Shown: positions 54,328 to 58,835 of the stretch, one piece after another
Position numbering within the stretch: the first letter of the stretch is position 1
Layout of the letters: each line of letters opens with the position of its first letter
NCBI RefSeq assembly: GCF_003334405.1
Contig: NZ_QOWM01000004.1
Length of the DNA stretch: 64,000 nucleotides
Reading direction: 5' to 3' (one strand)
DNA from: Escherichia coli
GTDB taxonomy: Bacteria > Pseudomonadota > Gammaproteobacteria > Enterobacterales > Enterobacteriaceae
Translations under genes and position numbers: made by a program
Notes under the pieces: generated by a model
The model's database searches: none
What the model was told of the DNA's origin: nothing
What the model saw: the letters and a program-made list of their open reading frames with translations, nothing else

Positions 54328-55686
54328 ATGGAAAAAGACTATTTGAGAATTAGTAGTACTGTATTAGTGAGCTTATTGTTTGGGCTTGCTTTGGTTTTGG
54401 TGAATAGTTGGTTTAATCAGCCAGGCGTTGAGGAAGTTGTTCCACGATCAACCTATCTGATGGTAATGATTGCTTTATTTTTTATCGATACTGTTGCATT
54501 TATTTTTATGCAGTTGTATTTCATTTATGACCGTAGGCAATTTTCAAACTGTGTACTTAGTTTGGCTTTTCTGAGTTGTTTGATTTACTTTGTTATAACC
54601 GTCATTATCATTCAGCAAATTATTGAGGAGCGTTTGACAAGCAGTGTTGTCCAAAATGACATTGCAATCTATTATTTGTTTCGTCAGATGAGTTTGTGCA
54701 TATTAATATTTCTGGCATTGGTGAATAAAGTTAGTGAAAACACAAAACAGCGCAATTTATTTTCCAAAAAAATGACTTTGTGCATAAGTTTGTTTTTTGT
54801 TTTTGGGGGGCCGATAGTTGCTCACATACTTTCTAGTCATTATGAGAGCTACAATTTACACATTGCCGAGTTAACCAATGAAAATGGTCAGGTGGTTTGG
54901 AAAGCCTCATATGTTACCATAATGATTTTCATGTGGTTAACCTTGCTTTCGGTTAATCTATACTTTAATGGTTTACGCTATGATATCTGGAATGGAGTGA
55001 CGGTGATTGCTTTTTGTGCCGTACTGTACAATATCTCTCTGTTATTTATGAGCAGGTATAGCGTGTCCACTTGGTATATTAGTCGCACTATTGAAGTAGT
55101 CAGTAAGTTAACCGTTATGGTAATATTTATGTGCCATATATTCAGTGCGCTACGAGTAACAAAGAACATTGCACATCGCGATCCCTTAACCAATATATTT
55201 AACAGAAATTATTTTTTTAATGAACTGACAGTTCAATCAGCATCAGCCCAAAAAACGCCTTATTGCGTCATGATTATGGATATCGACCACTTCAAAAAAG
55301 TCAACGACACCTGGGGGCATCCGGTTGGCGATCAGGTGATAAAAACAGTGGTGAATATCATTGGGAAAAGCATACGACCAGATGACCTTTTAGCGCGCGT
55401 CGGCGGCGAAGAGTTTGGCGTCTTGCTGACGGACATCGATACTGAACGTGCGAAAGCTTTAGCGGAAAGGATTCGGGAAAATGTTGAGCGTTTAACTGGC
55501 GATAATCCTGAATACGCTATACCACAAAAAGTGACGATTAGTATTGGCGCTGTTGTGACTCAGGAAAATGCGTTAAACCCAAATGAGATCTATCGACTGG
55601 CTGATAACGCACTTTACGAGGCGAAAGAGACCGGGCGTAATAAGGTGGTTGTGAGGGATGTGGTGAATTTTTGTGAGTCACCATAA
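54328..55686 (+). CDS. dgcT: Membrane-anchored diguanylate cyclase (GGDEF domain)
   Basis: Track ORF 54256..55686; ATG at 54328 gives 452 aa MEKDYLRISSTVLVSLLFGLAL; GGEEF active-site motif (RVGGEEFGVLL). Confidence 0.9.
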   Translation: MEKDYLRISSTVLVSLLFGLALVLVNSWFNQPGVEEVVPRSTYLMVMIALFFIDTVAFIFMQLYFIYDRRQFSNCVLSLAFLSCLIYFVITVIIIQQIIEERLTSSVVQNDIAIYYLFRQMSLCILIFLALVNKVSENTKQRNLFSKKMTLCISLFFVFGGPIVAHILSSHYESYNLHIAELTNENGQVVWKASYVTIMIFMWLTLLSVNLYFNGLRYDIWNGVTVIAFCAVLYNISLLFMSRYSVSTWYISRTIEVVSKLTVMVIFMCHIFSALRVTKNIAHRDPLTNIFNRNYFFNELTVQSASAQKTPYCVMIMDIDHFKKVNDTWGHPVGDQVIKTVVNIIGKSIRPDDLLARVGGEEFGVLLTDIDTERAKALAERIRENVERLTGDNPEYAIPQKVTISIGAVVTQENALNPNEIYRLADNALYEAKETGRNKVVVRDVVNFCESP

Positions 55687-55726
55687 AGCGGCATTTTGAT
55701 CCTACCCACGTAATATGGACACAGGC

Positions 55727-56593
55727 CTAAGCGAGGTTCTTGTTTTCAAATTGTTCCGGACTGAGGCCGCCACACCAACTGTGCCGCCGCCACCGATTGT
55801 AATCACATTCGATATAATTAAACACCGTTGCCCGCATTATTTCCCGGCTGATAAAGTGTTCTCCATGGATACATTCCACTTTCAGCGAATGAAAGAAGCT
55901 TTCCACGCAGGCATTATCGTAGCAGCAACCTTTTGCGCTCATACTTCCACGCAGATTATGCCGCTTCAGTTGCGCCTGATAATCTGCTGAACAGTACTGG
56001 CCTCCACGGTCCGTGTGAACGATAACGTTCCGGGGCCTCTTACGCCGCCACAGCGCCATCTGCAGGGCATCGCAGGCCAGTTGCGCCGTCATGCGTGGCG
56101 ACATTGACCAGCCAATAACGGCACGTGACCACAGGTCAATGACCACTGCCAGATACAGCCAGCCTTCATCTGTACGTAAGTACGTGATGTCTCCTGCCCA
56201 CTTCTGGTTCGGGCCACTGGCGTAAAAATCCTGCTCCAACAGATTTTCTGACACAGGCAGGCCGTGTGCGCGGTAGCTGACCGGGCTGAACTTCCGGGAG
56301 GCCTTTGCCCTCAGTCCCTGACGGCGCAGGCTTGCCGCCACGGTTTTTACGTTAAAGGGGTAACCCTGAGCACGCAGTTCATCCGTCAGGCGTGGGGCAC
56401 CGTAACGCTGTTTTGACCGGGTAAAAGCCGCGAGGACAACGCTGTCGCAGTGTTGGCGGAACTGCTGACGCGTGCTTATCCTTGTCCGCCGCTGACACCA
56501 CGTATACCAGCCGCTGCGGGCCACCCGGAGCACGCGGCACATTGCTTTGATGCTGAACTCAGCCTGATGTTTTTCAATAAAGACATACTTCAT
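55727..56593 (-). CDS. insF: IS3 transposase OrfB (DDE integrase domain)
   Basis: Track ORF of 288 aa, [30 protein letters not shown]. Confidence 0.93.
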
Positions 56594-56889
56594 TTCAGGC
56601 GCTTCGCGAAGTATGTCGCGGCCTTTTGGAGGATAGCCAGCTCTTCATCCCGTTCTGCCAGCTGGCGTTTGAGACGTGCAATCTCGGTAGACATCTCCAG
56701 TTCACGTTCAGAAGACGTCTGCTGATTTTGCTGTTTACTGCGCCAGTTGTAGAGTTGTGATTCATACAGGCTGAGTTCACGGGCTGCGGCAGTAACACCG
56801 ATGCGTTCAGCAAGCTTCAGGGCTTCACTGCGAAATTCAGGCGAATGCTGTTTACGGGGTTTTTTACTGGTTGATACTGTTTTTGTCAT
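56590..56889 (-). CDS. insE: IS3 transposase OrfA (HTH)
   Basis: Track ORF 56590..56898; ATG at 56889 gives 99 aa [32 protein letters not shown]; 4-nt overlap with orfB typical of programmed -1 frameshifting. Confidence 0.93.
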
Positions 56890-56954
56890 GTGAGTCACCT
56901 CTGACTGAGAGTTTACTCACTTAGCCGCGTGTCCACTATTGCTGGGTAAGATCA

Positions 56955-57298
56955 GTGCCTGGCACACGCGTTTGATGGAAGACGGCGTTCAGGCAATGCG
57001 CGATTATCTTGCCGGACTGGATATCGCTTCGCCAGAGCATCAGGTTCTGATGAACGTAACAGCAAAAAGCGAGGTCGCTCCGTCAATTATCAAAGAAAAT
57101 CTCTCATTACACTTAACTCATACGGTGAAATGGACTGAATCTCTCGATACATTTCTGAATATGCCAACCCCGGTAGCTTTCCTTGAAATAAGTAATAAGC
57201 CCTATTTGGGGAATATGTTAAATGATTTTGCTGGCGTGGATCAGCAACGAGTTATGCATTGTCGTAAAGCATTTAGTGATGCAAAGGTATTCAAATGA
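56955..57298 (+). pseudogene. ymdE: C-terminal fragment of an acyltransferase-like gene (FabD-like), 5' end replaced by IS3
   Basis: Track ORF 56939..57298 begins at a TTG inside the IS3 inverted repeat; the frame continues straight out of the IS end with no upstream N-terminal part after dgcT; stop overlaps ycdU start (ATGA). Confidence 0.65.
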
Positions 57299-58281
57299 TT
57301 CCTGATTATTTAACTTTTATTCGCTTTCAGGATAAACGAAATCTGATATACATTTATGCTATTGGACTTATTCTGATAGGCTTTTATTGGAAGAATGCAG
57401 GGTTTACTTTTCCATCAGAGGATATTGGTGTAGTTAGTGGGATTCTGGCTCTGGTGCTGTATAATTTTATTTTTGATCTCAAGGCGTACTGGGCTTATAA
57501 ATGCGTCACGAAGAATATCGATTTTTCGTGGTTTAAGAAAAAGCAGAACCACAAAATAGAATTATTTCTTACACAACCTCTGGTGGCAGGATTTCTGTCG
57601 TTAATCATGTTGAGTGCAATGAGTTGGGGGCTATACCAGCTTCTACCCTCGTTATATGCGCTGTTCCTGATTTCGTTACTTGGGCCGTTGGTCATCTTTC
57701 TGCTGTTTCGGATGATCCGCACCAGTTATGTCAAGCAGGTCGCTATTTCAGTAGCGAAAAAAGTAAAATATAAAAGTCTGACTCGCTATGTGCTGCTTTC
57801 GGTGTGCATCTCAACGGTTGTTAACCTGCTTACTATCAGCCCGTTGCGTAACAGTGATTCTTTTGTGACAGAGGGGCAGTGGTTAACGTTTAAATCGATA
57901 ATTGCATTGCTCATTCTTTGTGGCGTAGTGTTGGCGATTAATCTGTTTTTTCTGCGCTTCTCCAAGCGGTACGCTTTTCTGGGCAGGCTTTTTTTGCAGG
58001 AAATCGATCTGTTTTTCTCCAGTGAAAATGCGTTGTCGACCTTTTTTGCCAAGCCGCTTTGGCTTCGGTTATTCATATTGCTGGTTATTGAAGTGATGTG
58101 GATTACGCTGGTGTCGGTATTGGCAACGCTTGTAGAATGGCGGATTTGGTTTGAAGCCTATTTTTTACTCTGCTATGTACCGTGCTTAATTTACTATTTT
58201 TTCTATTGTCGATTCCTCTGGCATAACGATTTTATGATGGCATGTGACATGTATTTCCGTTGGGGGCATTTTAATAAGTGA
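57295..58281 (+). CDS. ycdU: Polytopic inner-membrane protein of unknown function
   Basis: Track ORF of 328 aa, [32 protein letters not shown]; multiple hydrophobic segments; AT-rich coding DNA. Confidence 0.9.
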
Positions 58282-58432
58282 GGAAGTGATAGGAAGTGAC
58301 CAGATAATACATATATGTTCTGTACTCTCTTGCGCATTTTGATTGTTGACTGAGTAACCAGACAGTTGATGTGCACGATTTCCCCTCGCCCTAACAGACG
58401 TGGGCGGGGGCACCCGGTGTGTGCAATATACG

Positions 58433-58460
58433 AAAAAAAAGCCCGTACTTTCGTACGAGC
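58433..58460 (-). terminator. Intrinsic terminator copy in repeat unit 1 (minus-strand GCUCGUAC-GAAA-GUACGGGC followed by U8)
   Basis: Hairpin 58441-58460 and A8 on plus strand 58433-58440, read from sequence. Confidence 0.6.
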
Positions 58461-58613
58461 TCTTCTTTAAATATGGCGGTGAGGGGGGGATTGACTCGCT
58501 TCGCTCGCCCTGCGGGCAGCCCGCTCACTGCGTTCACGGTCTGTCCAACTGGCTGTCGCCAGTTGTCGAACCCCGGTCGGGGCTTCTCATCCCCCCGGTG
58601 TGTGCAATATACG

Positions 58614-58641
58614 AAAAAAAAGCCCGTACTTTCGTACGAGC
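58614..58641 (-). terminator. Intrinsic terminator copy in repeat unit 2
   Basis: Identical hairpin plus U8, 181 bp from the unit-1 copy. Confidence 0.6.
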
Positions 58642-58794
58642 TCTTCTTTAAATATGGCGGTGAGGGGGGGATTGACTCGCTTCGCTCGCCCTGCGGGCAG
58701 CCCGCTCACTGCGTTCACGGTCTGTCCAACTGGCTGTCGCCAGTTGTCGAACCCCGGTCGGGGCTTCTCATCCCCCCGGTGTGTGCAATATACG

Positions 58795-58822
58795 AAAAAA
58801 AAGCCCGTACTTTCGTACGAGC
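58795..58822 (-). terminator. Intrinsic terminator of serX (hairpin plus U8, 13 nt after the tRNA CCA end)
   Basis: Hairpin 58803-58822 and A8 on plus strand 58795-58802; GNRA (GAAA) loop. Confidence 0.75.
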
Positions 58823-58835
58823 TCTTCTTTAAATA

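Follow-up and report, generated by a model that had tools for sequence, protein, structure and literature searches.

The best described counterparts of the locus analyzed here come from three sources. In Escherichia coli O157:H7 EDL933, the DNA beyond dgcT has been published as OI-47, an island of 31,727 bp that holds genes z1528-z1556 (PMC8565820). Goldstone et al. noted that ymdE is foreshortened by IS3 in phylogroup A, and speculated that ymdE and ycdU are kept by selection, on the grounds that both are core genes in mastitis isolates with little decay (PMC4951805). In the long-term evolution experiment, deletions adjacent to IS150 carry no target-site duplication, always follow an earlier insertion, and are often stepwise (PMC11708052).

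We analyzed a window of 64,000 nucleotides of E. coli DNA that is 99.97% identical to K-12 MG1655 over 12 kb, one 181-bp repeat unit being different. The gene order in the window is pgaA - dgcT - IS3 - ymdE′ - ycdU - serX - ghrA, where ymdE′ denotes what is left of ymdE. The scar at IS3 is real, but it is an ordinary IS-associated deletion that is already documented, as IS3D, the ymdE pseudogene, and OI-47 have all been annotated or published. To this we add the base-exact breakpoints, the 44 bp that remain of the island's left end, a nested allele with a longer ymdE remnant together with its frequency, and the absence of precursors among complete genomes.

IS3 and the genes on either side

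The gene dgcT (ycdT; 54328-55686, plus strand; b1025 in MG1655) encodes a GGDEF diguanylate cyclase and is intact. Its stop codon TAA (55684-55686) is followed by 10 bp (55687-55696, agcggcattt) and then by a complete IS3 on the minus strand (55697-56954, 1258 bp; IS3D of MG1655), with its IRR end at 55697 and its IRL end at 56954; direct reading and a script both returned the size and the 10-bp spacing given in a preliminary description of this DNA. Read along the window, the element begins with TGATCCTACCCA... and ends with ...TGGGTAAGATCA, and its terminal inverted repeats are imperfect and ~40 bp long (TGATCCTACCCA... / TGATCTTACCCA...). Size and repeats, which start with TG and finish with CA, are those of the IS3 group, as are the overlapping orfA and orfB on one strand, which correspond to insE (56590-56889, minus strand; 56590-56898 as an ORF; insE4, b1027) and to insF, the DDE transposase part (55727-56593, minus strand; a 288-aa ORF; insF4, b1026). 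RefSeq records describe the transposase with a "programmed frameshift", and annotated IS3 copies with 100% identity to the element occur in many genomes.

IS3 is bordered by ttt (55694-55696) on the left and by gtg (56955-56957) on the right; the 3-bp target-site duplication is thus missing, as the preliminary description had stated and direct reading bore out. Such a duplication characterizes the act of insertion rather than the IS3 element itself. The five IS3 copies of K-12 served as a control: perfect 3-bp duplications were found in IS3B (gat/gat) and IS3E (gtc/gtc), both plain gene interruptions that have kept them, and a clean duplication is also absent from IS3C (atc/acc) and from the truncated IS3A. 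The missing duplication is therefore informative, yet not unique to IS3D. In MG1655, IS3A (1255 bp; locus L012, 2230-3484) has the pseudogenes eaeH and ykgA as its neighbors, and IS3C sits in renD (locus L014, 2778-4035); these two copies may be signs of further IS3-associated rearrangements.

On the other side of IS3, ymdE′ (56955-57298, plus strand) consists of the 3′ 344 bp, residues ~200-313, of a gene for a FabD-like acyltransferase of 313 aa, and is annotated as a pseudogene in MG1655. Its reading frame does continue out of the left inverted repeat, being open from 56909 (46 bp back into IRL) to the stop codon at 57296-57298, and a possible TTG start within IRL at 56939 would give 119 codons. 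The full-length YmdE of O157:H7 (313 aa) matches PF00698 (Acyl_transf_1) over residues 11-286 (Pfam, E = 1.8e-24), with the nucleophile Ser97 in GHSVGE and a conserved His at 203. Against the FabD equivalog TIGR00128 it scores 178.7 bits, under the curated cut-off of 260.9 bits; YmdE is FabD-like, not the housekeeping FabD. The complete domain with its GHSxG serine is absent from the window copy; because ymdE′ starts only at residue ~200 and Ser97 is gone, its product cannot have acyltransferase activity.

The start codon of ycdU (57295-58281, plus strand) overlaps the ymdE stop codon (ATGA). This gene is intact, was the last gene of the former operon, and encodes a multi-pass membrane protein of 328 aa for which no NCBIfam family match was returned. 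We regard it as highly improbable that the ymdE′ frame is translated from TTG 56939, coupled to ycdU by ATGA, and that the pair has been selected in phylogroup A independently of the lost operon. A scan for promoters and terminators gave no signal beyond that expected from shuffled sequence, and it showed no promoter on the plus strand ahead of ymdE′; the synonymous and nonsynonymous differences in ymdE′ (0-3 and 0-2 codons, respectively) are too few for a test of constraint.

Farther downstream, RtT-like repeats and the tRNA-Ser gene serX (58839-58923) together span 58413-58923 on the minus strand, the repeats following serX. The unit after serX is 181 bp long, is present in 2.4 perfect tandem copies, and is RtT RNA by Rfam; The window is one unit short of MG1655, and between zero and two units occur in other strains. 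Just past ycdU, where K-12 has the repeats and serX, O157:H7 and E110019 have the start of a tyrosine-integrase island.

The island between dgcT and serX

In a blastn comparison with O157:H7 strain 3384, the window is collinear up to 55696/55697 and again from 56955, and strain 3384 holds 31,741 bp where the window has IS3, with homology breaking exactly at both IS3 ends. Because homology stops and restarts at the IS3 termini, IS3 stands in for these 31,741 bp, which include ymdE codons 1-199. The preliminary description had proposed to look at genomes with a full-length ymdE and had surmised that the lost DNA held the missing partners of ymdE and ycdU. Both expectations were borne out: genomes of this kind (O157:H7 and the unrelated O78 strain 3, with the full island in the same position) have an island of ~32 kb between dgcT and ycdU, and it contains acpS, an SDR, a dehydratase, an ACP, a GcvT-like protein, ketosynthases, a LolCDE-like exporter, and a LolA-like protein.

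In O157:H7, the interval starts from the dgcT side with an EAL phosphodiesterase, a small hypothetical protein, a winged-helix regulator (judged by its position, it is the GrvA of the reviews), and an SDR, followed by a chaperone-usher fimbrial operon, a filamentous-haemagglutinin/ShlB two-partner secretion pair, and a co-oriented operon of 15 genes (locus L003, 761-15554). This operon begins with acpS, a FabG-like SDR, a FabZ-like dehydratase, an ACP, and a GcvT-like aminomethyltransferase; continues with an 852-aa double ketosynthase, a second ketosynthase, a hypothetical protein, a LolD-like ATPase, another hypothetical protein, and a LolC/E-like permease; and ends with a LolA-like protein, a hypothetical protein, the full-length ymdE, and ycdU. 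NCBIfam confirmed the ketosynthase, LolCDE-like, and FabD-like assignments, all with scores under the equivalog cut-offs, and 5 of the 10 operon proteins scanned had no family match. Judging from these domain assignments, the lost operon looks like a maker and exporter of an envelope lipid or polyketide.

The OI-47-type gene set (vmpA-grvA-fimbrial-TPS-FAS-like) between dgcT and ycdU/serX is absent from the window, which keeps only the first 44 bp of the island and its last ~3 kb (ymdE′, ycdU, and the repeats). The 44-bp left-end remnant (55653-55696, unstranded) is identical in K-12 and O157:H7 and is absent from island-free genomes. In CD306 and SCU-306, which carry divergent ghrA alleles, serX lies 104 bp after dgcT and there is no ymdE, ycdU, or island; the similarity of these genomes to the window breaks off at 55652 and picks up again among the RtT-like repeats close to serX, at the right edge of the region 58413-58923. 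The boundary of the island thus falls inside dgcT (window 55653-55686 vs. 19572-19614 in locus L009), and the last ~11 codons are wholly different, giving 452 aa in island-bearing and K-12-type genomes vs. 455 aa in island-free genomes. Because its boundary lies within dgcT, the island haplotype gives the diguanylate cyclase another C-terminal tail.

K-12 and O157:H7 therefore have both island ends in common, the left one at 55653-55696 and the right one in the ymdE 3′ part and ycdU. Since K-12 retains 44 bp of the island that island-free genomes do not have, its locus is no empty site; K-12 descends from an ancestor with the island and has lost the interior of it. This explains the orphan ycdU and the dead acyltransferase fragment of K-12 as the last two genes of a lost lipid/polyketide-type export operon, with which K-12 also lost fimbrial, adhesin, and c-di-GMP/virulence-regulator genes. 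The function of ycdU or ymdE should be studied in an island-bearing strain.

Deletion alleles among complete genomes

Population counts were made over 5,426 complete genomes, about half of which have no island at all. The ymdE 3′ part and ycdU were found in 2,668 genomes, and the 5′ part of ymdE has been kept in 390 (mostly O157:H7 and O55:H7). The left junction of dgcT and IS3 is present in 2,300 of the 5,426. The query for the K-12 right junction returned 2,195 genomes, a number that includes a long-remnant variant also picked up by this query; the junction of that variant was found in 716, and taking these off leaves about 1,479 with the K-12 junction. The long-remnant allele (e.g., ECOR29, SJ7, and 2013C-3264) has the same dgcT|IS3 junction as K-12, but its IRL adjoins ymdE 185 bp further upstream with ggc as the right flank, and it lacks 31,556 bp. 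The two nested alleles (~1,500 and ~700 genomes) form a natural counterpart of the stepwise IS-adjacent deletions seen in the laboratory and offer a cheap lineage marker.

The truncated alleles have SNPs in the ymdE 3′ part in common that are distinct from the full-length alleles, which is consistent with one origin. The IS3/ymdE′ junction of strain S1-NGR-02-A (locus L002) is identical to that of K-12, and its dgcT differs from K-12 at 27 of 1369 sites and from O78 strain 3 at 6; its ycdU is closer to O157:H7. This mosaic suggests that the deletion allele was passed between lineages by homologous recombination, and such movement blurs phylogenetic inference. The shared SNPs and the mosaic junction point to a single origin and subsequent spread by recombination.

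Every short ymdE that we inspected adjoins IS3 or an IS3 remnant. Related genomes with the same junction and a short ymdE but no IS3, which the preliminary description had named as the observation that would speak against its reading, were encountered at none of the loci inspected; in strain 600, a later IS1-bounded deletion took away IS3 and most of the ymdE remnant. In E110019 and one other genome, IS3 ends at position 714 and is joined to the long-remnant ymdE flank (locus L008, 8001-8720), the IRL side of IS3 having lost 544 bp (positions 715-1258) up to exactly the former IRL terminus. An apparent surplus of 9 bp of ymdE in E110019 over the long-remnant allele was rejected as a chance overlap of two alignments.

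The IS1-bounded deletion of strain 600 is a separate event and extends from pgaB into ymdE′ (locus L016, 4248-5040). Strain HS-01 (locus L017) looked as if it had lost more DNA to the left and right of IS3, the flanks now lying in pgaC and at the end of ycdU; its assembly is of low quality, and at both junctions there are ~45-50 bp that resemble errors and cannot be aligned, together with 7 bp from the original left flank, so that it was not used as evidence. Strain 600 and the possible erosion in HS-01 agree with the instability that has been noted in print for the pga locus of phylogroup A.

Origin of the deletion

We consider it very probable that an island-bearing ancestor received an IS3 insertion and that one or more IS3-anchored deletions then gave the K-12 state. 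An island of ~35 kb would have been present between dgcT and serX in the common ancestor of phylogroups A, B1, C, and E, and an IS3 copy would have entered it at a site no longer identifiable. The IS3-anchored deletion or deletions would have removed the DNA from 44 bp inside the left edge to the middle of ymdE, and would have replaced at least one flank of IS3, whereby the 3-bp duplication of the insertion was presumably lost. The inactive acyltransferase fragment, the orphaned ycdU, and the intact IS3 would be what this process left over. What is observed is where the breakpoints lie to the base, which DNA was deleted, that the two alleles share their left junction, and that their right junctions are nested. 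Most simply, the K-12 state arose in two steps: a first deletion of 31,556 bp would have produced the long-remnant allele, and an extension of 185 bp from the same IRL end the K-12 allele, in which 31,741 bp are missing. The two alleles could also be independent deletions from a common IS3-bearing ancestor.

Three precursor junctions were sought among the 5,426 complete genomes, each in a separate query because long-remnant genomes tie with any true match in a merged one. IS3 after dgcT next to an intact island (junction IS3-IRL|tttTAGCGGGTG) was found in 0 of the 5,426, and IS3 in an intact ymdE was likewise found in none of them, either at the K-12 junction site (...GAGCGgtg|TGATCC) or at the long-remnant site (...GCTGggc|TGATCC). 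With no precursor among these genomes, both the site of the first insertion and the succession of steps are reconstructions.

The order of events is a matter of inference, and so is the agency of either the transposase or homologous recombination with a second, transient IS3 copy. The chance is a little short of even that the deletion was transposase-driven, nearby DNA in the same molecule having been attacked by the resident IS3 or by a tandem dimer or reactive IRR-IRL junction derived from it. The intervening DNA would then have been lost and the IS kept, ~31.6 kb going once and 185 bp later. Such adjacent deletion agrees with breakpoints that both lie exactly at IS termini, with target sites that share no homology, and with right junctions that are nested in one direction from the same IRL end while the left junction is unchanged. 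Transposition in the IS3 family is mainly copy-out-paste-in via a circle, which does not by itself delete flanking DNA; stepwise, duplication-free deletions beside IS150 are documented (PMC11708052).

A reading to which we give a somewhat smaller probability, still well within reach, invokes a second IS3 in the same orientation inside ymdE and a RecA-dependent exchange with the copy after dgcT, which would have cut out the island together with one IS3. The hybrid IS3 left behind would then owe its left flank to one insertion and its right flank to the other, so that the exact scar, an intact IS3 of 1258 bp between the unrelated flanks ttt and gtg, is predicted. The median copy number among IS3-carrying genomes is 3, and recombination between two copies is the classical account of the IS150-bounded rbs deletions. 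However, a fresh same-orientation insertion is needed for each of the nested junctions, 185 bp apart, and neither a two-copy bracket nor a single precursor was present among the 5,426 complete genomes. As both adjacent deletion and two-copy recombination predict the scar, we take them as about equal, with a slight edge to adjacent deletion because of the unidirectional 185-bp extension. The account in the preliminary description, insertion followed by an IS-mediated adjacent deletion, is supported for the IS3-anchored loss of the 31,741 bp, but two-copy recombination would leave the same scar as adjacent deletion in the strict, transposase-driven sense.

That K-12 never had the island, IS3 having entered an ancestral short dgcT-ymdE′-ycdU arrangement and O157:H7 having later gained 31.7 kb, can be read from the convention of calling OI-47 an O157 "island" relative to K-12, but we reject this as exceedingly unlikely, since the breakpoints lie at the IS3 ends and not at island ends, the 44-bp left end of the island is present in K-12, truly island-free genomes have serX directly after dgcT without ymdE or ycdU, and ymdE′ is just the C-terminal third of one PF00698 domain that is whole in O157:H7.

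The IS3/OI-47 scar leaves current understanding unchanged. IS3D and the ymdE pseudogene of MG1655 (b1026-b1028) are the same element in the same position with the same flanks, and the window differs from MG1655 at neither junction, only in having one 181-bp RtT-like repeat fewer downstream of ycdU. The IS150-adjacent deletions (PMC11708052) are similar in that an IS end serves as the fixed limit on one side, no target-site duplication is present, and the deletion is enlarged stepwise; they differ in having been watched in real time from known precursors, whereas the IS3 events are ancient, are common to ~2,200 genomes, and have no precursor in the sample. OI-47 of O157:H7 EDL933 agrees with the missing DNA in position, size, and content (the EAL protein VmpA, GrvA, fimbriae, and a fatty-acid/polyketide-like cluster). 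Unlike the island described here, it is defined as the difference between O157 and K-12 and hence ends inside ymdE; the 44-bp left end, the ymdE 3′ part, and ycdU, which this definition omits, belong to the same biological island and survive in K-12.
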